Source of the DNA: a virus
Lineage: Duplodnaviria > Caudoviricetes
DNA length: 64,000 bases
Strand: one strand, 5' to 3'
IMG/VR virus record: IMGVR_UViG_3300023047_000002
Position 1 is the stretch's first letter; each line of letters starts with the position of its first letter. Under the pieces are notes generated by a model that worked only from the letters and a program-made list of their open reading frames with translations, ran no database searches and was not told the DNA's origin. The position numbers were made by a program, and so were the translations under genes. Positions 8,064 to 62,166 of the stretch are shown here, piece by piece.

Positions 8064-8423
8064 ATGCTGCGTACATTCTCTGAAAAATACAACAACAGAA
8101 ACTTTGTATGGGATACAGGTTCTGATGCCGTCCGTGAATACCTTGCGTATATATTGAACACACCAAAAGGTACAAGACCCTACTACCCGAATTTCGGAAG
8201 CAACCTGCACAAATTCAAATATGCACCGTTAAATCAGGTCACACTTCGAGAAATCCATGCTGAAATACGTAACTGCATTAACGCCATAGACGGCATGATT
8301 TTGCAAACGAGCGAATACACGGTTGACGTAAAGTCTCGCTCCATCTACTTCAAGTTTTACATGCTTGTTGATAAAGACATGATGACGGTATCGCTTCAAT
8401 ATGCAGGTGGTGTTGCTTCGTAA
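8064..8423 (+). CDS. Baseplate wedge protein, gp25/GPW family
   Basis: ILNTPKGTRPYYPNFGSNL motif; 119 aa. Confidence 0.85.
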   Translation: MLRTFSEKYNNRNFVWDTGSDAVREYLAYILNTPKGTRPYYPNFGSNLHKFKYAPLNQVTLREIHAEIRNCINAIDGMILQTSEYTVDVKSRSIYFKFYMLVDKDMMTVSLQYAGGVAS

Positions 8424-8432
8424 ACATCATCA

Positions 8433-8530
8433 CTAGAGAAGCGAAATTTGACTTGTACGAAAAAGTTACTGTATCACCCTAGTAAGTACACCTCTGAAAC
8501 AAAAAATCGCGTAGAGAGCAAATTAAGCCC
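8433..8530 (-). repeat. ~100-bp dispersed element, copy A (strong-gyrase-site-like)
   Basis: Reverse complement CGCGATTTTTT...TACTTACTAGGGT...GTAACTTTTT.GTACA...CAAAT matches 28508-28627. Confidence 0.6.
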
Positions 8531-8591
8531 AACTTCTGAACAAGTTTCCTATTTGGTACTGACAACAAACCAAACAAACAATGAAAGATTT

Positions 8592-10976: not shown

Positions 10977-13034
10977 GTGGCTATCAACATAGATGAAAGT
11001 GACCACAATGTAAAGGGACAGTTTATGGCAAATATGAGAGCAATCAAAAATGTACTTGAACAGCTTAAAACGAAAAAACCAGAATTGCGGGAACCATTAG
11101 TGCCTATACGAGAATGGGTACAAGACCCTTACTATGTAGGAAAAGGTGGCGTGTTTACATGGAATGACGGGATTCCTACTGGTATATATCCGTACTACCA
11201 GGAATTGCTATGTGATCTGTTTGAGTATGAGAATAAATATGACATGGTGGTTATTTCTGGAGGTATCGGCGGTGGAAAAACGAGCTTCGGTCTGTATTGT
11301 TTCATCAGAAAACTTTACGAGCAGAGTGTTTACAACAACATACAGGGTCGCTATGGTCTCATGCCAACATCACCAATCGTGTTCCTCTATTTTTGTGCTG
11401 TGTCAAAGTTTATGGCAGTACGCCTTGGAACACAGCTTCGTGAAATTATCGACACCATACCATACTTCAAGGAAAAGTTCCCAAGAGATGAGCACATTAA
11501 CTCAGAGCTGCGCTTCCCTAACAACGTGTCCGTAATTTTCGGGACTGGTGAAGGAGATATGATTGGGAACAATGTAATATCCAGTATCATCGACGAGGCT
11601 AACTTTAAGGGTGATGCCACAGGTGATGCAGGCTCACTTACAGAAATCCAGAAGATGCATCACTCAGTATTGTCACGACAGGCTTCACGTTTCTCGTTCA
11701 ACGGAGTCAACTATGGAATGAATATCGTCATATCATCAGCCACAACAAGCAACTCTTATACGGAGCATCTATTTAAGGAGGCACAGACGAACCCTCGTGC
11801 TAAAGCTGTGAATGTGAGGACATGGGACGTGAAACCTTGGGCGCATAAGAAAGAGCGTTTCTATGTGTTCAGTGGAAGCGAGAAGTATGACCCGTTTATT
11901 ATGGACAGCCCTGAAAAAATCGAAAGCCAGCTTAACATTCCTGTAAGTCACGGAAAGCCAATGGAAGAAATTGTAACCGAACTGCCACAAGAGATTCGTA
12001 GACTGGTTGATGCAGTTCCTATTGATCGTAAAGAGGAGTATGAACGGGATATCTACCTAGCTTTAAGAGATATATCAGGTATATCGGTTTATGCACAAGG
12101 CAAACTGTTCCAGGACAAACACGTGTTCAGCCAATGTATCGACAGTTCGTTACCGAAAATTTTCTCAAGAAACGAGTTCACAGTTGAAACGAACAACAAC
12201 TCACCTACGAACTGCATTCAATACTATCTGGACAGACCTTTCCTCGACCCACAAAAACCACGCTACATCCACATCGACTTAGGCCTTACGAACGATGCCA
12301 CAGGTATTTCGTGCTGTTACAAAGCAGGGGAAACCATAGCAGACGGTGTGCGTACACCAGTATTCGTCTATGACTTCTCTCTACGACTTGTACCGCCGCC
12401 ACTACCAAGACGAATAAGCATTGCACGTGTCAATGAATTTATCCTCTATCTTTCACGCAAACTACACCTAGGCATGGTTTCGATGGACCAATTTCAAAGC
12501 TCGGCGAGCTTACAATTCTTTGAAGAGAACGGAATACCATGCAGATACCAATCAGTTGACAGAACGGACAAGGCGTACCTGTTCTTTGTGGACTGCATGT
12601 ACCGCCAGATAGTCAAATTTCCTACGGACTTTGCAGAAGCAATCCAGCCTGAACTGTTCAATCTTGAATGGAATCGTTCAAAACACAAAGTTGACCATCC
12701 TGGAACGACACAGACAGGAGGTATGAAAGACAGGATGGATGCCGTTGTCGGTTCACTCTATAACGCATACGAATGTGGAGTAACAGAGTACAATCCTCAG
12801 GACATTCTGTCTTTGTCAATGCACAACCCGACAGAGACGATTACCTACCGTGACAACAGAACAAGTCAAAGTAATGGAGCTACGACTCCTGCAGAAGGAT
12901 TTGTATCCGGATATGATGAACAGGATATTTTGAATATGCCACTCATGTATAAGCACACATCAGAAGACGAAATGGATGCTCTCTACGGAAGCACGATTGA
13001 TTGGGATAGCGTGATTAACCGCGAAGACAATTAG
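10977..13034 (+). CDS. terL: Terminase large subunit
   Basis: Walker A GGIGGGKTS, Walker B IIDEAN, nuclease YIHIDLG...DQFQS...KVDHP...KDRMDAV. Confidence 0.9.
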   Translation: MAINIDESDHNVKGQFMANMRAIKNVLEQLKTKKPELREPLVPIREWVQDPYYVGKGGVFTWNDGIPTGIYPYYQELLCDLFEYENKYDMVVISGGIGGGKTSFGLYCFIRKLYEQSVYNNIQGRYGLMPTSPIVFLYFCAVSKFMAVRLGTQLREIIDTIPYFKEKFPRDEHINSELRFPNNVSVIFGTGEGDMIGNNVISSIIDEANFKGDATGDAGSLTEIQKMHHSVLSRQASRFSFNGVNYGMNIVISSATTSNSYTEHLFKEAQTNPRAKAVNVRTWDVKPWAHKKERFYVFSGSEKYDPFIMDSPEKIESQLNIPVSHGKPMEEIVTELPQEIRRLVDAVPIDRKEEYERDIYLALRDISGISVYAQGKLFQDKHVFSQCIDSSLPKIFSRNEFTVETNNNSPTNCIQYYLDRPFLDPQKPRYIHIDLGLTNDATGISCCYKAGETIADGVRTPVFVYDFSLRLVPPPLPRRISIARVNEFILYLSRKLHLGMVSMDQFQSSASLQFFEENGIPCRYQSVDRTDKAYLFFVDCMYRQIVKFPTDFAEAIQPELFNLEWNRSKHKVDHPGTTQTGGMKDRMDAVVGSLYNAYECGVTEYNPQDILSLSMHNPTETITYRDNRTSQSNGATTPAEGFVSGYDEQDILNMPLMYKHTSEDEMDALYGSTIDWDSVINREDN

Positions 13035-13125
13035 TAACTAAAAGTCATTTAAAGTTTCGTGTGAAGCTGCACATCAAACCAAACGTATCGAAATTAAGAT
13101 GCTTAGGTAAGTATCCAGAGAGGAA

Positions 13126-16100
13126 GTGAAAATGCCAGAAACCACACAAAAACCATTATCGTTCGAGGATGCAATTTTATCCAGTCCATTATCTGTTTAC
13201 ATAGGGCGCATAGTTTACATGCCTTCGTCATGGAAAGAAAACGGACTCGTGTACGTAGACATCAATGCAATCGATGGCGACGTAAAACAGCCAAAGTCAA
13301 GCGAATATAATGGCAAAGACATGGAACACGAACTGGAAAGCTATGGTTACAGACGAGCCATGCTTCCACGTGGACTCGTCATGGCAGCCAACCTATGGGA
13401 AAATCCACAAACGATTTACTACAAAGGATCATTCGCAGGGAACGGAAGCATCAGCATCTCAAACTATATGTTCGATCCACTGACAATGACGTGGATTACA
13501 ACAGTATCCACAGCCTTGAATGCAATAGGTATTATCAATGTTCCGCCCATGTTCGTGTCCTTATCTGAAACTGGAATACCTGCGCCGGCAACATCAGTAG
13601 ATGTCGGGCAAATCGTCGAAGAAGCGTTCTCGAATGCACTGTCAAGCATGACGAATCCACTTGAACCAGGAAGCAGTGACTCATTAATCCCATCACTGGA
13701 CGCATCAGACATAATCGATAAAGTAAAGGATTCACTCCTAGGATCCCTTGCGATACCAGGAAGCAATGTTAAAACTCTTCTTTCTGAGGGTGTGAAGCTC
13801 GTATCTGGACTTCTTCCAAAACTAAAAGAAGCCTATGGGTTCGATGAGCTGATAAACAAACGAGATGTACTCCACGAAGCATTGACAGATGCAGAAGAAC
13901 AAATCGTTCAGAAAATAACTGCTCTTCAAAAGACAGCAGAAGATCATTTAAAAAACCTTGCTACATCAGCAATAAGTGCTGCACAGAGCCAACTAAAAGA
14001 AATCATTATGAGCGTTGCATCGCCTATAGTAAACAAGGTAACAGCACTCTATAACGAAGTCTTAGGTAAAATACGTGACAAAATACGCAACGTAGTAGAC
14101 AAAAAGATAAAGCCGCCACTAAAAAAGGTAAAGAAAAAACTGGAAAAGATAGTGTCACAGTCAATTTCACCAATCATCGCAAGACTTCCAATGCCAGCAC
14201 GCTTCATGGCGTCAATAGTCGTGAAAAAAGTTCTGGAAAAGGTATGTGAGAAGGTTGTCGGTTTCGTAGTAAAAGCCGTAAAAGATGCACTAAAAAAATC
14301 ATTCGATTATGGAAAAGACAAAATCATCGAATTACTGATGAAAGCATTTGAGCCACTGAAAGAAAAAATAATGCAGAGCTTTATAGGACAAACCGCTTAC
14401 CAACTGACAAGCAAGACACAATGGTTTATGAACACTGATGCCGGTGATGTCGTAAAAGCACTTCCTGAAATGATTGTAGAACAATTCAAACAGATGGATG
14501 ACGTGTACGAAACGATTGAAGAACGTATAACACCATCGACATCTGAGATGACAAACGTAAATTCACTCCTAAGCGAATTTCTAAAATCGGTATACGAAGG
14601 ATGTGTGGAACGCGATAACCCATCAAGCGGTATAGAACTATGGGATGGAATACGAGGTAGACGTGTCAGCTTCTACGACATAAAAGATTCACCATATTTG
14701 AAAATGTCATCACCTGTGACCATACTCACTGAGAAAGCATATAATATAATACAGGAAAAATATGCGGCATTGATTCAGGAAAAACTGATCCCAATAATGT
14801 CTTATGCTGAGGCACTGAACAATCCAACATCAAAGCCATCGGAACTCATTTCCAAGACACTTGAAAAACTACCTAAAACACTGGTAATACAAAGTTCTGA
14901 CAGAGATGAAATTTTAGGACGAATCCACGGAGCAACACTACAAGGTATCGAAGATTACACGAAGTACGCACGTTTCGTAGATGATGGTATCCTAAACTAC
15001 ATCTGTTCCCTTATCGGAATACAACCAGACAGCATAAAATATACGTACATAGACAAGTACAACATGATACTGCCGGAGATAGACATCTACAATGATTTCT
15101 TTCCTACCTACCCAACTGACGGATACACCGACCTTGACCTAGCAATTATGGGTCCTCTGATTGCCTACGTAAGATGTGGCTTCTGTGCATACATAAATGA
15201 AATGCTTGCGTCTCTGCATGTCCTCATTACAGGTGGCGTGTTATACGATCAACAAACAAACGGGTCATACATACCAAGGTCACTCACAGACATGTATGGA
15301 AATGATGTGTATTGCTATAAGCACACTAACTCAGGATATATCAGAATTGACAGCCAGACAGGTATAATATTCCAAGTGTGCCCGGCATTCGTTATTGACA
15401 TACGTGAAATACAGGCTGAAAAGAAAAAGAACTCCGTAAAGACTACCCAAGAAACCGAACTTAAAGAAGTCTCTGTATTCAATGCACAAAATCTGGTGAG
15501 TGAAGAATACCTTGAGAAACATCCTGAAATGAAAGGAAATGTCATAACACTAAATGCAGAACAAGCAGAACTTCTTACAAATTGGTTTGTCTTCATATTT
15601 GACACGTCTAAGTACCCATACAAGAAACCGGCTGGAATACCATCAGGACGTTCGCAAGTAACGGTAAGCATCGGAGATGTGGATAAAGACCCAAACGGGC
15701 TAAAGTTCTCTTACGGTGGAACAGAGTTCACTATAAACATGCGGAAGTACGTTGAAATGGTGAATCCAATAATCATTCAGAAAAACAGCTTCTTCACAGT
15801 AAATGGATTACGGTACATATACCCTATGACAACGGGATATATGGACTTACCTATTGTGCTGTATGAAGTGAGCAGAGGTGACATTACCGATAAAAACGGT
15901 AATGTGGAAGAATTCACATTCTGGACTACCGTATATGAACCTGAACTTGACGATGACAACAATCCTGTCGTTGACGACTCTGGAAATCAAGTCTTCATTG
16001 AAAGAGATCAGCTAAACACTGTGACAAGCAAAGACGTAACTGTCACATGCGACCAAATACTCTGGTACGAAGACGAAAGTGCTTCTCCTATTGATGTATC

Positions 16101-17112
16101 AACATTCTTCTTCCTCACACAACCTATAAAGACAGAAGGAACAGATACAGGCATAGGAATCTTCACACGGACAACTGAATACGGAAGCCAGTTAGAAATA
16201 AGGTACAACAAAAAGAAAGACGGCAATGTAACATCCTACACTAAAGGCTTCAACAGAGAAGTACATACCATGGCCTGTAAGGAATTGATGTTTATTAGCA
16301 TAAACCCGAAAAATGATAAAATACAAGATAGAGCACGGCTAAATAAAAACGCAGTGCCGAATAGCATACTTCCTATGCATGTCTATCGTGACAATATTTC
16401 AGCGATTGTCAAAAAAGAGAATGACGCAAATACAGAAACGGAATCAAACTCTTCAGACAGCTTTGAACAAACAATAGAGAATATGATAGAGGTAGCACAG
16501 GCAGTTTCGGAAACCACTAAAAATGTCATTTACAAGGCTTTTGATGTTGTTGACTTTGACGCCCTAAAGAATATAGAACCACTACTATCTGACGTAGAAC
16601 AAAAAGTAATGGATAAGATGACATCGTTTATGGAAGATGCCAAAGCAGAGGTATCAGAGTTCGCATCAGAGTTCAACGATATCGTAAAAAACACAATGAG
16701 CGGTCTAGGAGAACTCGCAGGTGAAACAATCGACCTAAAATCATTAACAGAAAAGATAACGACGATGCTCGGTGCTGAGAAAGGTGTAAGGGAGGTAATA
16801 TCAACACTGAACAAGCTCGGCGATGTAGCAACTAAAGTTAATGACAACTTTGAAGCTGCAAGTGGAACTTTAGATACATCACTTATAAGTGAACTTGGAG
16901 CAATGGTAGGACCATCTATGTCACTATCCAACAGCATCGGAGATTACGACATGTCTCTTACCGAAAAACCAAAGAGCCTAAAACCATACTGCCATGACAC
17001 CGAGGATGATGTTCTTCTAAAAGTCGGCGACTTGGTATTACTAATGGCCATTGGAAATTCAACAGAACATCTTTACGTATTAGACATACCGTACAACAAC
17101 CAAATCGTGTGA
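13126..17112 (+). CDS. 1328-aa virion protein, possibly baseplate hub/spike-related
   Basis: Long ORF; termini resemble halves of a gp5/gpV OB-fold; amphipathic helical middle. Confidence 0.5.
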   Translation: MKMPETTQKPLSFEDAILSSPLSVYIGRIVYMPSSWKENGLVYVDINAIDGDVKQPKSSEYNGKDMEHELESYGYRRAMLPRGLVMAANLWENPQTIYYKGSFAGNGSISISNYMFDPLTMTWITTVSTALNAIGIINVPPMFVSLSETGIPAPATSVDVGQIVEEAFSNALSSMTNPLEPGSSDSLIPSLDASDIIDKVKDSLLGSLAIPGSNVKTLLSEGVKLVSGLLPKLKEAYGFDELINKRDVLHEALTDAEEQIVQKITALQKTAEDHLKNLATSAISAAQSQLKEIIMSVASPIVNKVTALYNEVLGKIRDKIRNVVDKKIKPPLKKVKKKLEKIVSQSISPIIARLPMPARFMASIVVKKVLEKVCEKVVGFVVKAVKDALKKSFDYGKDKIIELLMKAFEPLKEKIMQSFIGQTAYQLTSKTQWFMNTDAGDVVKALPEMIVEQFKQMDDVYETIEERITPSTSEMTNVNSLLSEFLKSVYEGCVERDNPSSGIELWDGIRGRRVSFYDIKDSPYLKMSSPVTILTEKAYNIIQEKYAALIQEKLIPIMSYAEALNNPTSKPSELISKTLEKLPKTLVIQSSDRDEILGRIHGATLQGIEDYTKYARFVDDGILNYICSLIGIQPDSIKYTYIDKYNMILPEIDIYNDFFPTYPTDGYTDLDLAIMGPLIAYVRCGFCAYINEMLASLHVLITGGVLYDQQTNGSYIPRSLTDMYGNDVYCYKHTNSGYIRIDSQTGIIFQVCPAFVIDIREIQAEKKKNSVKTTQETELKEVSVFNAQNLVSEEYLEKHPEMKGNVITLNAEQAELLTNWFVFIFDTSKYPYKKPAGIPSGRSQVTVSIGDVDKDPNGLKFSYGGTEFTINMRKYVEMVNPIIIQKNSFFTVNGLRYIYPMTTGYMDLPIVLYEVSRGDITDKNGNVEEFTFWTTVYEPELDDDNNPVVDDSGNQVFIERDQLNTVTSKDVTVTCDQILWYEDESASPIDVSTFFFLTQPIKTEGTDTGIGIFTRTTEYGSQLEIRYNKKKDGNVTSYTKGFNREVHTMACKELMFISINPKNDKIQDRARLNKNAVPNSILPMHVYRDNISAIVKKENDANTETESNSSDSFEQTIENMIEVAQAVSETTKNVIYKAFDVVDFDALKNIEPLLSDVEQKVMDKMTSFMEDAKAEVSEFASEFNDIVKNTMSGLGELAGETIDLKSLTEKITTMLGAEKGVREVISTLNKLGDVATKVNDNFEAASGTLDTSLISELGAMVGPSMSLSNSIGDYDMSLTEKPKSLKPYCHDTEDDVLLKVGDLVLLMAIGNSTEHLYVLDIPYNNQIV

Positions 17113-17117
17113 CGATA

Positions 17118-17149
17118 AAAAGAGCGATGGATTTTATCCATCGCTCTTT
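17118..17149. terminator. Bidirectional intrinsic terminator
   Basis: AAAAGAGCGATGGAT...ATCCATCGCTCTTT between convergent genes. Confidence 0.75.
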
Positions 17150-17188
17150 AGACACGAACAACACAACCAGACATGTGAACTACCAACC

Positions 17189-17340
17189 TCTTTCTGTGCC
17201 TCGGTTTCAATTTTAGCGAGTTTCTACTCGATCACTTCACCGCTGCGCGAGGAGGCAAGTGCCTCAGCATAAAGACGGTCTTTCTCGGTGTTATAGGTGT
17301 TGTTGTAGATTTCTCTGCACGATTCTTTAACGGTTGGCAT
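17189..17340 (-). pseudogene. Truncated gene downstream of the MTase (possible restriction endonuclease stump)
   Basis: ATG at 17340 overlaps the MTase end; 38 codons, TAG at 17226-17224, then KLAKIETEAQKE up to the element junction. Confidence 0.5.
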
Positions 17341-18505
17341 CTATGTTCGCCTCCAATATCTCTGCGATTTTTTTGCCCCAAGCATAAGCAAGCAGAGGAG
17401 GAACAGCATCGCCTATCTGCTCGTATTTGTCTTGTGTAGTGCGGTCAATGTGTGGAACAAGATAAGGACCACCACAAAAGTCATAAGAGTCTGGGAATGA
17501 TTGCAATCTTGCACATTCACGAACCGTGAGAGCACGATTATGGTTCGGATGCACAAATTCATCCAGACAGTGACTTGTTACGGTCGGAGAAGGTTCTCCG
17601 CTAATCAAGCGGTAATTTCGCTTGATAAACATCTTCTTGGGCAAGATTCTCTCTGCCTGTAATGCCTCTCGCTCCTCGCCTGTGTATCGGTCGAAAAGGT
17701 CTTTCAAACTTTCGCCCTGTTTCAGCAGTTCGAATCGTTGCAAGGTACAGGCACGATGTTTCATAGGTTTGTGGTAAGTGATTTCTTTTACTTCGCCACG
17801 ATTCCAGAAAGATGCATTTTTCATCAGCAAGGAGAAAGCGCTCTCTGTTCCAGTGTAGGTGGTGCCTTCTTCCTCTGTGTTTGGAATGACATTCGGCAAA
17901 CCTGCAAATGCCTCTGCGACAGTTACCTCTTTGTTGCAAGTCGGAACAGGTGCAGACAGCAACCATTTCGGGTCTTTGCTTGCGAGGATAAAATATCTCT
18001 TTCTCCGTTGGGGAACACCGAACTGTGTGGCAGAGAGAACGACCTCAATGTAATTGCCGTAACCTGCCTCGGTCAATTCTCGTTTCAGTACATCAACAAT
18101 CAATTCCTTAGAGGTTTTCTCCACGGTCTTGGTTGTGATGGCTGGCACATTCTCGAATAGAATCATTTTCGCATTTGCGATTTGAGCAATGCGAATTCCC
18201 TCACGGAATAAAAACTGTCTGTCATCGTAGAAAGAACGAGAGGTATTGCCCGCAGTAGAAAAGGTTTCGCACGGCATACCAGATGTAACAAGGTCAATCC
18301 CTTCTTTAGGAATAAAGGGCAGAATCTGCTCTGCAGTGACCTTGCGAATATCGGAATGAATGACATAAACTTCTGGATGGTTCGCAGAATAAGTCTCGCA
18401 ACAACTCTTTATGTATTCAATGGCAACCTTGGTGTCAAATCCTGCGGCGTGCAAACCTGTGCAGATGCCACCTGGGCCAGCAAAGCAATCTATATGTGTT
18501 AGCAT
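17327..18505 (-). CDS. dcm: C5 cytosine DNA methyltransferase
   Basis: FAGPGG, GMPCETFS, ENV, QRRKR, RECARLQSFP, QIGDAVPP; ATG at 18505 with GGAGGTG RBS and an upstream TGcTATAAT. Confidence 0.92.
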   Translation of the reverse strand: MLTHIDCFAGPGGICTGLHAAGFDTKVAIEYIKSCCETYSANHPEVYVIHSDIRKVTAEQILPFIPKEGIDLVTSGMPCETFSTAGNTSRSFYDDRQFLFREGIRIAQIANAKMILFENVPAITTKTVEKTSKELIVDVLKRELTEAGYGNYIEVVLSATQFGVPQRRKRYFILASKDPKWLLSAPVPTCNKEVTVAEAFAGLPNVIPNTEEEGTTYTGTESAFSLLMKNASFWNRGEVKEITYHKPMKHRACTLQRFELLKQGESLKDLFDRYTGEEREALQAERILPKKMFIKRNYRLISGEPSPTVTSHCLDEFVHPNHNRALTVRECARLQSFPDSYDFCGGPYLVPHIDRTTQDKYEQIGDAVPPLLAYAWGKKIAEILEANIDANR

Positions 18506-18668
18506 TGTGGCACACCTCCGTAGGTGTAGATACAAAAATTCATCATATATTATAGCATAAAGGGTCGAAAAAGCCATAGGATTTTGTAAAAAAGATATGA
18601 CGAAATTTCGACATATCAAAAAAGCAGAGGCAACCCACTAAAGCAGGTTGGCTTGCGGCTCGCCTCTG

Positions 18669-18905
18669 TTAAATGCCTGAATTGCCATTATCGGAAATGT
18701 CCCGAAGACGGTCAAAATGTTCATTAAGAATTGACATGATTGCCAAGTCTTTCTTTGCAAGGTAATCCATGAGTTCAATCAACACCTTGGACAAGTACTT
18801 GATGTTCTCATCAGCCATAATCTCTTCATCTGTTCTCATAACGACATACTCCACAAATAGTTCTAAAACGACAAGATACCCTGTCGTTTTAGAAATATAA
18901 CACAA
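18669..18905 (-). CDS. Small hypothetical protein
   Basis: ORF downstream of a TGGTGCTG promoter; real start probably a downstream ATG (MRTDEE). Confidence 0.5.
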   Translation of the reverse strand: MCYISKTTGYLVVLELFVEYVVMRTDEEIMADENIKYLSKVLIELMDYLAKKDLAIMSILNEHFDRLRDISDNGNSGI

Positions 18906-23141: not shown

Positions 23142-23150
23142 TGCACAAAG

Positions 23151-23297
23151 GTGAACTACCCACCGCCTAAAGGCAATGGACTCAAATCGAATATCTCACA
23201 AGGATTATGCCTGAATTCAACGAACAGTCCACATCGCTAGAAAAACCTAGTTTTGTTTCAATGACATCCACAGGCATAGGTTTCGATAGTTCCACGC
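23151..23297 (-). mobile_element. Degenerate IS605-family right end with omega-RNA-like scaffold
   Basis: Minus strand GTGGAACTATCGAAACCTATGCCTGTGGA...GTTCGTTGAA...CCTTTAGGCGGTGGGTAGTTCAC. Confidence 0.65.
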
Positions 23298-25508: not shown

Positions 25509-25716
25509 GTGAACTACCCACAGCCTAAAGGCGGTGGGCTTCAAGTTTCAACGAACAAGACTTAGCTTTCTTCTTAGTTGAATACTTGCCAGAGGTCTTA
25601 TTCTCAGTTCGCATTGTATTCCTACGTTCCATAGGAATTGAAAACCTTGTACCACAACAACAAAATTACTCGCCTTACCAACGGGCTAAAGCCCTTGGGC
25701 TTTCGGCTCGCTTTTG
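25509..25716 (-). mobile_element. Complete non-autonomous IS200/IS605 element (208 bp) with omega-RNA-like interior
   Basis: TTAC|CAAAAGCGAGCCG-AAAG-hairpin left end; GAAG-hairpin-TAGTTCAC right end; guide/cleavage pairs AAAG/TTAC and GAAG/TCAC. Confidence 0.8.
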
Positions 25717-28498: not shown

Positions 28499-28507
28499 AC
28501 AATCTCC

Positions 28508-28627
28508 GAAAAAGTAACACGTCCATAAAGTGGTCTAGAATGCGTTTCTCGCGATTTTTTATTTTACCCTCATACTTACTAGGGTAAGGTCGTAACTTTT
28601 TAGTACAGGGCAAATGTTGAGGCTCTG
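28508..28627 (+). repeat. ~100-bp dispersed element, copy B
   Basis: Shares ACACGT.CATAAAG.GGTCTAGAATGCGTT and TACTTACTAGG with copy C, and the right arm with copy A. Confidence 0.65.
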
Positions 28628-29402: not shown

Positions 29403-29449
29403 GTGAACTACCAACCGCCTAAAGGCGGTGGGCTTTCGGCTCTCTTTTG
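29403..29449 (-). mobile_element. 47-bp single-hairpin IS200/IS605 element with both left and right cleavage sites
   Basis: Minus strand TTAC|CAAAAGAGAGCCGAAAGCCCACCGCCTTTAGGCGGTTGGTAGTTCAC. Confidence 0.7.
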
Positions 29450-39846: not shown

Positions 39847-40329
39847 ATGAGACAGATGATGACATGGTATGAAGAAGAGGTTTTAAGGCTTAATAGAAGA
39901 GCAATCGCTTTTGTCACTGATCGTGGAGGACGTAAATATGAATGCCGTTGCGGTTGGTGTACTGGTGGAGAGACTGATGATGAATTGCTTCACGGTATAT
40001 GCTATGATGCAGGAACATTCGATGACATTGCTTGCCGCGTTTTTCATTATGAGCAAGATGTTTCATCGTTGAAAGGGTATTTCCGAATCATCGCATCGTT
40101 CCCTTGTCAAACTTGTGAGCTTGTCTTCGCAAGCATTCTTGGAGACCATGGAGAGTTAGTAACTTACGATGATGCACTGTCCTGTATGAAGTATCTGATG
40201 CAGGATTTACAGTCTGATGTTCATCAGTACATGATAACGTATCGCAAGGAAATTGATGGCGATGTGTTTGACGATTACGGGATGACACTTTATTCAAATG
40301 ACGGTTTGGGATGGGGTGAAGTTTTTTAA
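39847..40329 (+). CDS. Hypothetical protein
   Basis: ORF track 39784..40329; start uncertain. Confidence 0.5.
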   Translation: MRQMMTWYEEEVLRLNRRAIAFVTDRGGRKYECRCGWCTGGETDDELLHGICYDAGTFDDIACRVFHYEQDVSSLKGYFRIIASFPCQTCELVFASILGDHGELVTYDDALSCMKYLMQDLQSDVHQYMITYRKEIDGDVFDDYGMTLYSNDGLGWGEVF

Positions 40330-40548
40330 CATTGGCGAACTTAAAATCCAACGTGACTTTCTCCAGATCTTTCTTTAGTTCTTTATGGGTACACTCCTTT
40401 TCATTGGTACGTTTTGTTTTAGACGCTTCAAAGAAAGTGTAGTCGGCTTGTGATAATAAAAATTCGAATCACATGGTTCCTCGTTATTCCAGTCCATATT
40501 CCATTTCACATTTCACGAAAACAGCAGAATACCTACAGGTGAAAAGTC

Positions 40549-42727
40549 ATGTTCGATCGTGTTATTCTTTGTTCACAAGGCAACACAGGTGTGTTTGCAA
40601 ATAGTCAATCGTTACACGCGTTGTTACGTGCTAAGAAATTGATTTTGAATGAAGGTGATGTTCGTGTTTACTTTGTTCCAGGTGCACATCCACTCACTTC
40701 AAAACAGGTTACTGGACTCCGTAATTGGACAATTGATCAAAACAATCTCGACAATGTGGTTGTAGTCAACGAATCTGCTCAGTTTTCAGACGGAAAGAGC
40801 AGCCATATGGCATACGAGATAAAAGCTACTGTCTTTATGCTGTCAGAGCTTCATGTCGTGGCATGGGGTGATTTGAAAAGATTCTAATGCCAAGCCCATT
40901 GATGGTGCTTACTTTACTGGCTATTTAATCATTGTCACGGTATGTAATCGTGTGTTTCTTGCCGCGTATTCTGATGAAAAGTTAGAATGTTCACCTGACT
41001 TGAAGATGACTTTCGACGTTGAGGAAACAAATGGTGTTCTTCAAGCAACGGCAGACTTTGACGGAAAGATTACACAGGGCATTTTCGACAAACTGCATGA
41101 CAACTATTACACGAAAGAGGAAGTCGATACTCTTGTTGAGAATAGCATTTCTGGTTCTTCTTCTGGAAGTTATGTGACTCTGAACACAGATCAGACGATC
41201 AATTCACGAAAGACCTTTGAAGCATCGGGTCAAACCATATCGACAGAGATTTCATCCAACGGTGTTCTAATTAGCCGACCTGGCACTTACAGTGATGGCG
41301 ATTACGTCATGTCACAATGGACTTGTGATGGGATGTTTTTAGGGACTACGTCTGTTTCGATACGAAATGAATTGAATAGAAATGGTTCGTCATCAAATCT
41401 GTTATCCCTTGTTGTTTCCGATAAGAGTGATAGTAGCATTGATGCAGAATGCACACATGTGGACATAGAAAAAAGTGGTCTGTCTGTTTTTCATCGGAGA
41501 TCCAATGCATTTGATGATGTTCGTGTTCTTCAACTGGAAGAGTCTTACGGCAAATTTAGTAGAGATATGAATCTTTATCTGCCTAGGGATACTCAGATTC
41601 TAATCGGGGTGTCTTCCTTTGAGACCATTGGAGGTCTTTATTTTTACAGTGATTCCTCGGATGGTGAGACTGTCTATACGTTAATGTCAGGTGAAAAGAG
41701 TTACCAGCTTTCTTCTGAGCATCTCAGTGTTAGAGAATTTGACCCTGAGACACAGGAAGGTAGCACAGATTTGACTGCAGCAGTTCTTAGTGATGTGTTA
41801 ATGCAAGCATCTTCTCCGCGTGTGTTTATTTTCCTTGATAACATAGAGAGCATTGTATCTGGTAATGCTTTGACGCAAAGTGTTATGTCTCATATGGGTA
41901 TAGCGTTTGTGTTTATGTCGGAAACAGATTCTGTAACGGATTATACTAATGCCAGGATGTTTGTCATTCGTGATGTTTCCCTTCTGTCGTATTTCATTCC
42001 TGTGGGAGCTGTGTTTGACTTTTCCTATGGTTATGGCTATGTCAGGGTTATTCAACGTTATCCTTCTGATAAAATCGGAACAACTGACACAACAAGCGGT
42101 GATACAATCACGAAAGTTCATGATTATTCTGTTCAAATTGAAAATGCAGACAATTATATGTCGCTTTATTCGTATGTGCAGTCTTATGCACCCTCTGGCG
42201 GTTCTGGTTCAACGTCTTCATCGGTTGATTTTACATCGGTTTCGTCCGATATCATCAGCACTAATGACTTCTATAACTTAGGTTCACCTGAATTCAAATG
42301 GGGAACCGCATATGTCACTTCATTAAACGTAGATGGTCTCCCTCTTAGCAACTATAATCAGGGTCTTGACTGTTCATGTCATTTAACACCGTATAGTACG
42401 GATATATACAATCTTGGGTCTGCACTTTATAAGTGGGATAACGTTTATGCAAATACGTTGTACGGCATCAACGCCAATCTTTACAGTGATGGCATTGGAG
42501 GCATTTACTTTTTCTGTTTTGAATTTTCAAGGACAAATGGAACCTTACCTCGTGGAACTCGTGTAAGTGAGTTCTCCTCGCTTGGATTTGTTGTTGATAG
42601 CGTATTTGAGATGATTGATAATAAGGGTGGTTACGTCCAAACCACTTTGAACGGCGATTACATCACATTGATGTCTTGTGTTGCAAGTTCTTCACGTAAT
42701 TTCATACCTTGTCTTCGTATAAGTTAG
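40549..42727 (+). CDS. Tail-fibre-like gene split by a +1 frameshift at ~40876-40879
   Basis: ORFs 40549..40887 and 40952..42727 fuse if one A of TTGAAAAGA is removed; YVTLNTDQTINSRKTF and two YNLGS...KW repeats. Confidence 0.6.
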
Positions 42728-42751
42728 GTTCACACAGATTGGAGTTGTTTT

Positions 42752-43201
42752 ATGGTTGTTTCTAAGAATCGTTCGGAACCGGTTCAACCCCTCGAAATAG
42801 TTATTCATTCTGTAAAGTATTTCGGCGTGAATCCCAATCAGGTGCTTGCACGTGTTACTGTTCAAGGTATGAATGGTAATCAGCCTTTTGGTTATTTTGT
42901 TGCGTTGGACAAAGAATGTGGTACTGATATTGCTCGATTTGTTATTGACTCTATAAACACTAAACAGATAACGGTTTTACCTACGGATTCAGACATATCT
43001 GCATATCTTGCAAAACAGGCTAGAGAACAAAGAGACCATCTTTTGCAAGAGAGTGATTACTTGGTCAATTCCGATTACCCCATATCTCAAGAAGACCGCT
43101 CCCTTGTCATTGCGTATCGTCAGGCATTGCGTGACATTCCAGAGCAGCCTGGTTTCCCTGAAACAATCGTATGGCCAATGAAACCGACATTTCTTTTGTA
43201 A
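42752..43201 (+). CDS. Tail fibre assembly chaperone
   Basis: AREQRDHLLQESDY...YRQALRDIPEQPGFP..IVWP. Confidence 0.85.
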   Translation: MVVSKNRSEPVQPLEIVIHSVKYFGVNPNQVLARVTVQGMNGNQPFGYFVALDKECGTDIARFVIDSINTKQITVLPTDSDISAYLAKQAREQRDHLLQESDYLVNSDYPISQEDRSLVIAYRQALRDIPEQPGFPETIVWPMKPTFLL

Positions 43202-43230
43202 GACGGTGATCGGTAAAATCCGCAGGATAA

Positions 43231-43270
43231 TGGTGCTGTTTTTTATCCGGTGGGAATAGTTTGTTAAGAT
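43231..43270 (+). promoter_or_regulatory. Phage promoter TGGTGCTG-N23-TGtTAAGAT
   Basis: Motif family. Confidence 0.7.
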
Positions 43271-43322
43271 GCTTCTTGTTCCATCTTGGAACAACTTCCC
43301 CCTTTCTTTTGGAGAAACGAAC

Positions 43323-43568
43323 ATGCACGAAGACACGAGTAAGAAACAGAGTACAAACCAGACTAGCGATGGTAGAATGATATACATCGAATGTCACTAT
43401 AACGAGCGTTGTAAAATCACATCAGCACAATCTCTTGAAGAGATGTATGACATCCGTAACGAATGCTTGCGCATCTGGAATGAAGAGGGTCGCGTTCGTT
43501 GGCATTTTCTTGCAAAATACGCTGACACAGGCGAACACATCAAAATCGCAAACGAGTTCAGTCGCTGA
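43323..43568 (+). CDS. Hypothetical protein
   Basis: GGAG RBS, ATG 43323. Confidence 0.55.
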   Translation: MHEDTSKKQSTNQTSDGRMIYIECHYNERCKITSAQSLEEMYDIRNECLRIWNEEGRVRWHFLAKYADTGEHIKIANEFSR

Positions 43569-43586
43569 TTAAGAAATAGAACAACT

Positions 43587-43628
43587 TTGTGAACTACCTA
43601 TTCGATTTAGCTGATGGGTAGTTCACAA
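43587..43628. repeat. Head-to-head pair of IS605 right-end tips forming a hairpin
   Basis: TTGTGAACTACC-N18-GGTAGTTCACAA. Confidence 0.55.
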
Positions 43629-52011: not shown

Positions 52012-52701
52012 ATGTACGAGTTAAATGGTGAGTTGTCGTGGGAAACTGCGGAGTACGTTGGTGATGATACGGGTGAGGAGCTTGAGCTTTTTTCCGAAAA
52101 TGCTGACGATTCGGATGATACGCAAGATGGGTCTATTCCAAACGAGGAAGCCCTTGATTTAGCAGCGGTTTTCTCAGCACGAAAAGCAACACAGCTTTTA
52201 CTTAAGAAGTATCCTGATGCATTCAAATACGATCCAAAGTCCATGACTTTGGATAAGTTTCTTGACGATAAGGGTTTGACTGAGTTCGGATGGCTTTACA
52301 TTCAAATGCTTGCATATTCTGTGTCTGGAAAGTATTACAGAAATGAGGACCAGAACAGTTTAAACACACTCGCTGTCTCTGACTGTGCATCTTGGTTAAA
52401 TCACAAGGTACGATTTTTCACAGGTAAGATATTGAACCTTCGAGCAATTCTGTACACACGTATTCGCAACACGATGTCTAACAGTCTGTACAAGGATAAT
52501 AAATACCTTCCGACTGAGGATACTGTGCTTGATCTTAATGCTTATAACGACAAGTCAATACACACGTATGGGGTTTCTGATGAAGTTTTGGATTACGTGT
52601 TCAGTAACAAAGAAGAAGCTCATGCCATGACGTTAAAGATTTTTGACTTGTCAAGAGGTATTACGAAGCAACCCAATAAAACTCTGTTTCGTCTGTCTTA
52701 A
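52012..52701 (+). CDS. Possible sigma-factor-like protein
   Basis: LRAILYTRIRNTMSN resembles sigma region 2.3-2.4. Confidence 0.35.
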   Translation: MYELNGELSWETAEYVGDDTGEELELFSENADDSDDTQDGSIPNEEALDLAAVFSARKATQLLLKKYPDAFKYDPKSMTLDKFLDDKGLTEFGWLYIQMLAYSVSGKYYRNEDQNSLNTLAVSDCASWLNHKVRFFTGKILNLRAILYTRIRNTMSNSLYKDNKYLPTEDTVLDLNAYNDKSIHTYGVSDEVLDYVFSNKEEAHAMTLKIFDLSRGITKQPNKTLFRLS

Positions 52702-52793
52702 CATGAATTGTAGGCGGTAATGGATAGTGGTGAAGATAACCAAGACTGATAAGCTGTTAATCTGTCAGTTCGTTTGCATACAGGAGTTTTACG

Positions 52794-60923: not shown

Positions 60924-61994
60924 ATGTTGATTAAGAAAAAAAAGCAAGAAGCTCGTCGTTCATGGACAGGTGAAGACATTGCACGTCTTCACAAAGAAAG
61001 TTCCTATGGTCGAAATCGTCGTGTTCGTCGTTATGAAGCTGACGATGATAACGATAAACCTATTGAGACTCCGTCTGAGTTCTCAAACAAGCAGTCTTAC
61101 ACAAATTTCGTCAAGCACCTGTTGGATGGTGTAAATGACGACAAAGCAAAAGCGTGGATTGATTATGCTTTTGGTGGAAAGAATGGCGATATAACCTTTA
61201 CCGCAGAAGCTGAGAAAGGTTATGATGTTCATTCATTGTACCCGACACAGAATTTCATCGGTCTTGAAAATTCCATTGGTTTTACTGTGAACAATCCTGA
61301 TAAAGCCAAAGACAGCTTCCGTAAGATGCTCATGGAAGACCGTCCTGAGATTAAGGCAGGTTCTGCCATTTGGATTTTTGAGGGTAAGTACATCATTGAT
61401 GGACATCACCGTTGGTCTCAGGTTTATGCTTTCAATCCGAATGCAAAAGTCGTTGCGGTCAATTTCAAGTGTTCTGAGAAACTTCAACCTAAACAAGCAC
61501 TGGCTGCTGTCCAGGGTGTCATTGCTTCAGTTACAGGTAAAGTACCTATCGCAACAAGCAAGGTTGATGGAAAGGATAATGTAACTGCATCGAACGTTCT
61601 GAAAGACAGCGATACCACAATGTTAAAAGCCGCACAGGTTTGTTTGGAGTCTTCACCTGCTCACGACGAGTTTAACAAACTTTGTGATGAAGTGCTTGAA
61701 ACTGGAGAAGGTGCGTCAACTCGCATTTCACGTATTGACGCAAAGTTCGATGACAATTCAAGCGGATCTAAAGTTCTAACTTATGCAGTGAACAATTGCC
61801 TTGCTCTTAAATCAGGCAACAATGCTGTCGAGGGTGCACCTGATCGTGAGTATATGCCTCAGACGGATGGTGGAAAGGGTGCTCCTGCCGATATTCCTGA
61901 CCAAGTAAAGAAGACACTTGGCTCTGGTGTTGATGACGTCGTTAAAAATGTTGAACACCGTATCCCGAAAGCCATTCGTAAGCGTTACATGTGA
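60924..61994 (+). CDS. ParB/Srx-fold domain protein
   Basis: LYPTQ...YIIDGHHRW; GGAGG RBS before ATG 60924. Confidence 0.65.
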   Translation: MLIKKKKQEARRSWTGEDIARLHKESSYGRNRRVRRYEADDDNDKPIETPSEFSNKQSYTNFVKHLLDGVNDDKAKAWIDYAFGGKNGDITFTAEAEKGYDVHSLYPTQNFIGLENSIGFTVNNPDKAKDSFRKMLMEDRPEIKAGSAIWIFEGKYIIDGHHRWSQVYAFNPNAKVVAVNFKCSEKLQPKQALAAVQGVIASVTGKVPIATSKVDGKDNVTASNVLKDSDTTMLKAAQVCLESSPAHDEFNKLCDEVLETGEGASTRISRIDAKFDDNSSGSKVLTYAVNNCLALKSGNNAVEGAPDREYMPQTDGGKGAPADIPDQVKKTLGSGVDDVVKNVEHRIPKAIRKRYM

Positions 61995-62035
61995 GCAATC
62001 AATTTAAAGAAAAGTTCTTTTGTTGCTTGACGTTT

Positions 62036-62069
62036 AAAGGCTCATGTACTCAAATACATGAGCCTTTTT
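62036..62069 (+). terminator. Intrinsic terminator
   Basis: AAAGGCTCATGTA...TACATGAGCCTTTTT. Confidence 0.75.
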
Positions 62070-62166
62070 GTCTTAATGGTGCTGTTGTGAGTAAATCGTT
62101 TATTTTGTTGTAAGTTCTTCTTGATTTTTTAGTACTGTTTCTCTTGTCATAGAAGGACGTTAAAAT

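Follow-up and report, generated by a model that had tools for sequence, protein, structure and literature searches.

In the IS200/IS605 family, the two TnpA cuts fall after the left target and the right tetranucleotide, and passenger-carrying derivatives are known. In the geometry of IS608, the guide lies 5′ of the hairpin foot and the cleavage tetranucleotide 3′ of it (PMC3201880), and the family as a whole prefers the lagging strand (PMC5027513). Subterminal hairpins with a 4-nt loop and a 4-nt guide at the foot are common to IS608, the IS200/IS605 elements, their transposase-less derivatives (PATEs) and the repeats described here (PMC3201880, PMC5027513). A second system, the PeSL cassettes of T4-like phages, likewise consists of short conserved stem-loop repeats edging variable cassettes; PeSLs, however, are regulatory motifs without a transposon origin that act via homologous recombination, whereas the present repeats are transposon ends (PMC2839356, PMC4122927). 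The locus analysed below probably arose when about 1.45 kb of bacterial DNA was joined into an IS remnant by microhomology-guided illegitimate recombination, an account held here with good, though not full, confidence.

The DNA under study is a stretch of 64,000 nucleotides, called the window, from a phage with T4-like structural and replication genes (Pfam matches include portal PF07230, gp25, a RecA-like protein and a family A polymerase). Contigs identical to the window reach 243 kb; no DNA match was found among INPHARED phages, and no Rfam family within the window. Pfam domains for intein splicing, Hint and LAGLIDADG occur among the open reading frames (ORFs) at 35411-63481, pointing to a putative intein with a homing endonuclease in one of them. 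Read on the minus strand, a 242-aa gene is followed by a 56-aa ORF (18839-18669), after which come a left half (38 nt, 18668-18631), the cassette (1442 bp, 18630-17189) and a right half (14 nt, 17188-17175); a terminator hairpin (17150-17118) then precedes the stop of a convergent 1328-aa gene, which is tape-measure-like (phrog_167 tape measure match). The features of this locus are as follows.

18669-18839, minus strand: 56-aa ORF, function not assigned, no Pfam or PHROG match
18631-18668, minus strand: left-end half of the element, made of 13 nt, the 4-nt guide CAAG and a hairpin with 8 of 9 pairs kept
18618-18635, minus strand: upstream joint, with GGTTG (18631-18635) common to the phage hairpin arm and the donor terminator loop
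17187-18635, minus strand: segment copied from a bacterial restriction-modification (R-M) operon, 99.8% identical over 1450 nt to L008:5214-6663
18515-18557, minus strand: donor-derived expression signals, namely the extended -10 TGCTATAAT (18549-18557) and the ribosome-binding site GGAGG (18515-18519)
17327-18505, minus strand: dcm, intact gene of a 392-aa C5 cytosine DNA methyltransferase (PF00145, E 3e-58; phrog_116)
17224-17340, minus strand: stub of a BsaWI-type restriction endonuclease gene, 38 codons and then TAG
17175-17188, minus strand: right-end tail of an IS200/IS605-derived element, comprising GGTTGG (the 6 closing nt of the hairpin's 3′ arm), TAGT as linker and a cleavage-type TCAC
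17118-17150, no strand assigned: terminator-like hairpin, flanked by the right-end tail of the IS and by the stop (17110-17112) of the convergent 1328-aa gene

The preliminary description of this DNA had placed a dcm cassette of about 1.44 kb, with a promoter and ribosome-binding site of its own, between GTGAACTACCAACC at 17175-17188 and a second half at 18631-18668. Both statements hold, the cassette being 17189-18630 (1442 bp) and the two signals being readable in the sequence; moreover, both signals lie inside the donor-homologous segment. The PF00145 model covers residues 3-381 of the dcm product (198 bits) and the FAGPGG, PC, ENV and QRR motifs can be read, so that dcm is, by model match and catalytic motifs, a full-length member of the C5 cytosine DNA methyltransferase family.

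The origin of the cassette is a host R-M operon, as had been proposed, and its homology to the donor stops at the CAACC junctions. L008 is a bacterial contig carrying a tRNA-U5 methyltransferase, dcm, a full 292-aa RE_BsaWI gene (PF18643) and a phosphoglucomutase; its similarity to the window covers only 18635-17187, ending inside the CAACC repeats. The copied segment takes in the 3′ half of the terminator upstream in the donor, then the promoter and dcm, and closes with 51 codons' worth of sequence from the start of the endonuclease gene. The phage and donor dcm genes are 100% identical in nucleotides, as are the proteins, and the whole 1450 nt contains three differences: one indel of 1 nt in a T-run (18573) and two substitutions (17231 and 17226), both G-to-T and both in the endonuclease stub. 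A G-to-T change turns codon 39 of the stub into TAG; the 14-nt overlap with the end of dcm is kept as in the donor. The segment is 92% identical to further contigs with dcm and RE_BsaWI (L011-L013), and the operon recurs in numerous bacteria of the gut and rumen. For a gene flanking it in the donor, the nearest named homologues belong to 'Proteobacteria bacterium' MAGs (66-71% identical).

Near-identity by itself gives no direction, and a passage of dcm from phage to bacterium has to be considered on that ground. This reverse reading deserves next to no credence: the endonuclease gene and the upstream terminator are complete in bacteria and truncated in the phage, which retains 38 codons and a new stop, and the operon is widespread in bacteria while it is absent from close phage relatives. 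On the strength of these sequence comparisons the transfer went from bacterium to phage; it was also recent, given the near-identity together with this distribution of the operon.

The two halves flanking the cassette were next compared with mobile elements of related phages. The sister phage G002, about 88% identical to the window, has three extra blocks of 1.5-2.0 kb, each holding a TnpB gene (PF07282, E 1e-20 to 1e-27) and ending with the hairpin unit. These elements are absent from the matching window sites, where homology resumes right after TCAC or TGAC; the empty sites at 13034-13144, 52701-52746 and 61993-62150 correspond to TnpB-only IS copies of 1.66, 1.55 and 2.03 kb in G002, which is evidence for recent movement of the IS family in this phage clade. 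The hairpin followed by TAGTTCAC is the right end both of the G002 TnpB elements and of a complete tnpA and tnpB element in G004, an unrelated jumbo phage that shares only a few genes with the window, at about 70% identity. In that element tnpA (PF01797, E 3e-34) and tnpB are divergent, the left hairpin lies 19 nt from the boundary, and the right end is composed of a guide, a 9-bp hairpin with a TTTA loop, TAGT and TGAC. A Y1 HUH TnpA thus stands by the same ends in G004, with the HUH motif and the tyrosine visible in translation, and TnpA is also present in G006; tnpA was not found in G001-G003, and neither tnpA nor tnpB occurs in the 64-kb window.

A hairpin model (R1), built from these hairpins, matches directly 3′ of all three G002 TnpB genes and of the G004 tnpB, on the same strand. 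The stem shows compensatory changes at 4 of its 9 pairs, a score that none of 500 shuffles reached. Subterminal hairpins at both left and right ends are seen in the G004 element and in a 208-bp element of the window (25509-25716). For three TnpB insertions and one block of 3.3 kb, the end falls exactly behind TCAC or TGAC. On the left side, TTAC precedes two of the three window elements that bear a left end (25509-25716 and 29403-29449) and the G002 mini-element, whereas the copy at the dcm locus follows TTAA; the TnpB copies have differing left targets (CTAT, TCAT), which are not derivable from their guides. Since the hairpin unit ends TnpB genes and a tnpA and tnpB element in the IS608 layout, the naming of the halves as genuine IS200/IS605-type ends, made in the preliminary description, is supported by sequence. 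As in known IS200/IS605 elements, the right end appears to close with a tetranucleotide lying a few nt beyond the 3′ side of the hairpin, the left ends lie 17-19 nt from the boundary, the autonomous relatives carry Y1 TnpA and TnpB, and the window copies are co-oriented with the presumed lagging-strand template. The copies point away from about 30 kb, where the sign of the GC skew switches; this orientation fits the lagging-strand preference and is confounded with gene orientation.

The initial reading of the repeats was that of PeSL-like regulatory motifs, and it was dropped once TnpB and TnpA were found at the same ends. Under that reading the repeats would be phage promoter or terminator cassettes, and the dcm cassette would have arrived by recombination between them. 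Every one of the six strong hairpin copies in the window lies between genes, runs in the direction of the genes and precedes a start codon by 9-32 nt, and copies border indels and an inversion relative to G002; the hairpin unit is, however, the 3′ end of TnpB genes and of a tnpA and tnpB element, the copies come and go between phages as precise units of 44-47 nt or 1.5-2 kb, and no sigma-70-type promoter, such as PeSL membership calls for, was found within the unit. The PeSL explanation is therefore extremely unlikely, even if a regulatory side-role of the repeats is possible. The transposon reading is retained in what follows, and the window holds several further remnants for comparison.

29403-29449, minus strand: intact 47-nt single-hairpin mini-element used as comparison copy (54.7 bits), preceded by TTAC
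25509-25716, minus strand: 208-bp mini-element with two ends, the left one after TTAC and the right one closing in TCAC, and free of protein genes
23148-23293, minus strand: solo right end that retains about 145 nt from a decayed tnpB 3′ region, 71% identical to a G002 TnpB element
43589-43626: palindromic IS end, 38-nt palindromic forms being known in the window

The mini-element at 29403-29449 is absent from the matching G002 site, as an indel, and the region 23148-23293 gives weak tblastn matches to TnpB residues 416-448. Larger rearrangements were also observed. The segment 26233-35447 is inverted relative to G002 82700-91329, and its breakpoints adjoin IS right ends of opposite orientation (23151 and 35504), as would follow from recombination between such ends. 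At 40329-43622, a 3.3-kb block of four ORFs, including a tail assembly chaperone, stands in place of 306 bp of G002 and ends exactly at the palindromic IS end 43589-43626. Another repeat, about 100 nt long and not related to the IS ends, is found at 8422-8531 and 28507-28620 and in four places of G002 (76-85% identity).

With these copies at hand, the two halves at the dcm locus can be read precisely. The sequence GTGAACTACCAACC is exact both at 17175-17188 and at 29403-29416; with up to 3 mismatches it has 11 matches against 5.0 expected, a count reached in none of 100 shuffles. The right-end tail lacks the 5′ arm and loop of the hairpin and gives a weak hairpin-model match at 17171-17226. 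The left-end half begins right after the TAA stop of the 56-aa ORF, has the layout of the left ends at 25698-25711, at 29431-29444 and in the sister phage L131, and gives a weak model match at 18626-18673. Joined at the shared CAACC, the halves form a unit of 47 nt, as long as 29403-29449, which aligns with it without gaps, is identical at 38 of 47 positions and folds as one hairpin; the rebuilding of such a unit by excision, announced in the preliminary description, is thus borne out.

The joints themselves bear on the mechanism. The upstream joint has a 5-nt microhomology, GGTTG, followed by the 3′ arm and T-run of the donor terminator, so that the donor break falls in the loop of a rho-independent terminator. 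The downstream joint has a 2-nt microhomology, GG, and its donor break is inside the endonuclease gene. Both joints map to one 6-nt sequence in the 3′ arm of the element hairpin, not after the left target or after TCAC. These positions, together with the donor lacking IS ends, the break inside the restriction gene and the 5-nt and 2-nt microhomologies, point to a capture by illegitimate recombination (template switch or end-joining) and not by transposition. The preliminary description had instead invoked capture or mobilisation by TnpA, with the element as the vehicle that moved dcm from host to phage as an IS200/IS605 passenger. The cargo does lie between a left-end half and a right-end tail, and TnpA-bearing copies of this IS exist in other phages. 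The joint positions nevertheless contradict this proposal already, and the window holds no transposase gene of its own. Furthermore, model R1 finds no IS200/IS605 ends in the donor contigs L008 and L011, where the homology is continuous chromosome on both sides; the hairpin of the right end is lost in the window (fold of 17165-17215, z +0.4), so that the present unit should not be excisable. A pair of functional ends, as a TnpA passenger would have, is thus lacking in both donor and recipient, and transport by TnpA is very unlikely. A break made by TnpB-guided cutting was rejected as well, since the joint, about 38 nt from the left target, is too far for the TnpB cut distance of 15-21 nt.

A consequence of the joining is visible on the upstream side. 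The phage left half begins with 8 nt that match the 5′ arm of the donor terminator exactly; L131, which has no dcm, carries nearly the same 8 nt, so this block belongs to the phage. Phage left end and donor terminator arm thereby form a composite, terminator-like hairpin at 18621-18672 (-13.4 kcal/mol, z -3.9). This hairpin and its T-run stand directly after the 56-aa ORF, and the hybrid may now be the terminator of that ORF.

The same locus was then followed in related phages, in which at least six alleles were seen.

L137: plain terminator
L001, L003, L134: 38-nt palindromic end
L132: reversed right end
L136: 56-aa ORF and reversed right end
L131: 56-aa ORF, left end, 535-bp cargo with a 131-aa ORF, right tail, terminator
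window: 56-aa ORF, left end, dcm cassette, right tail, terminator

The 56-aa ORF occurs only in L136, L131 and the window, and is absent from L001, L003, L132 and L134; no relatives of it were found in the viral contigs searched. L131 has the same terminator-like hairpin as the window at 17118-17150 and, as the preliminary description had suggested might be seen elsewhere, a different cargo between the same two halves. Its homology to the window breaks off in the left hairpin and starts again at exactly 17188, so the interior of the element appears to be a variable slot that has been exchanged at least once. The L131 cargo (L131:3211-3745) has its 131-aa ORF bracketed by a 13-bp inverted repeat, which, with an adjacent TTGAC motif, is found once in G002 (12671-12705); the ORF has no Pfam or PHROG family, and the Atlas gives a weak DUF4160 lead.

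An empty form of the locus was also sought. Close relatives without dcm carry other hairpin-family forms at this place, but none has the exact empty 47-nt allele: neither that allele nor the right half was found in viral contigs or JGI metagenomes, and exact-protein look-ups returned filled alleles only. For this reason we infer the pre-capture state from the alleles at hand. L131 keeps GAAG and a 5-nt 5′ arm before its right tail, which suggests that the ancestor had two ends and that its cargo was exchanged in the lineage of the window. Alternatively, the cassette was inserted into a 47-nt single-hairpin element, with two independent insertions in the window and in L131. The splitting of a single hairpin, which was the original idea, is possible and fits the data, and replacement of the interior of a two-ended element fits them too; the two histories are about equally probable.

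Two facts count against chance joining: both joints fall in the same 6-nt arm, and L131 has a different cargo bounded at the same place. This clustering hints at something more site-specific than random illegitimate recombination. The foot of the hairpin could be a hot spot, whose 3′ arm is repeatedly broken by a specific nuclease (TnpA acting off-site, a phage Mre11/Rad50-type hairpin nuclease or a homing enzyme) and there captures available DNA, the mini-elements being landing pads. The unrelated cargoes of the window and L131 are bounded at the same nucleotides, and a third right-end tail, at 158508 in G004, likewise retains exactly the 6 outer nt of the arm. At least six alleles exist at the locus, and proteins of the gp46/47 kind (Metallophos and AAA_23) are encoded in the window. 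The tails of the window and L131 share their flanks by descent, however, and are not independent events; the GAAG and 5-nt 5′ arm of L131 fit an ordinary two-ended element with cargo, not an insertion; and no nuclease is tied to the site. The hot spot is thus a rather unlikely explanation. Of the earlier view that mini-elements serve as landing pads or vehicles, the TnpA vehicle is contradicted by the joints, and the landing pad survives with a low probability. An equally tentative extension is that decayed IS200/IS605 ends form an integron-style slot in this jumbo phage clade, in which genes are captured and then swapped between phages. If true, the hairpin foot would be a preferred point of breakage or strand switching, the conserved ends would act as portable homology, and accessory genes, including freshly stolen host anti-restriction genes, would be captured there.

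The preferred account, microhomology-guided illegitimate recombination, can be described in a few steps. The phage carries many decayed, transposase-less IS200/IS605-family derivatives, one of them at the convergent junction of the 56-aa ORF and the tape-measure-like gene. During an infection, about 1.45 kb of bacterial chromosome would have been joined into the interior of this element. We infer the pathway from the joints, and the favoured route would be a polymerase template switch at the folded hairpins or the end-joining of a break. The upstream joint would have used the GGTTG common to the hairpin 3′ arm and the donor terminator loop, and the downstream joint the GG in the endonuclease gene. 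The captured piece would have supplied its own promoter, ribosome-binding site and intact methylase, the endonuclease being brought in as a dead stub only. The predicted function is that the phage pre-methylates its own DNA against host BsaWI-type restriction. A methylase matching such a host enzyme would benefit the phage, given that WCCGGW sites are present in the 64-kb window (32) and not depleted. Over the whole window, GGCC is observed 21 times against 69 expected and GCGC 26 times against 65, and CCGG-type sites are not under-represented; the scarcity of GGCC and GCGC suggests avoidance of other restriction systems.

The capture of this cassette offers a well-resolved view of known processes at work in an unusual setting. 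It allows a host-to-phage capture to be seen almost as it happened, with donor operon, breakpoints, microhomologies, endonuclease stub and three changes, and it ties an uncultured 243-kb phage to a bacterial host lineage. By its predicted activity, the methylase of a host restriction system would have been turned into phage protection. IS200/IS605 elements and their miniature remnants appear active and abundant in this jumbo phage group, where they border variable gene blocks, and the question is raised whether single-strand hairpin ends promote gene capture in phage genomes.

Compared with IS608, the linker is here 4 nt and not 6, and TCAC ends 8 nt and not 10 nt from the hairpin foot. In contrast to known IS200/IS605 elements, those described here reside in virulent-type jumbo phage genomes, the window holds remnants only, and the dcm cargo would have entered by microhomology joints inside the hairpin and not by TnpA chemistry. 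The donor resembles the BsaWI-type type II R-M systems (Pfam RE_BsaWI, PF18643) in its pair of dcm and RE_BsaWI genes with a 14-nt overlap; the phage copy differs in having no working endonuclease, and a BsaWI-type recognition site of this particular pair is putative. The phage orphan DNA methyltransferases derived from host R-M systems likewise consist of a methylase without its endonuclease, presumably for self-protection. What sets the present case apart from these is the nucleotide-level view of the donor operon, of the two breakpoints and of the endonuclease stub, only three changes having accumulated since capture.
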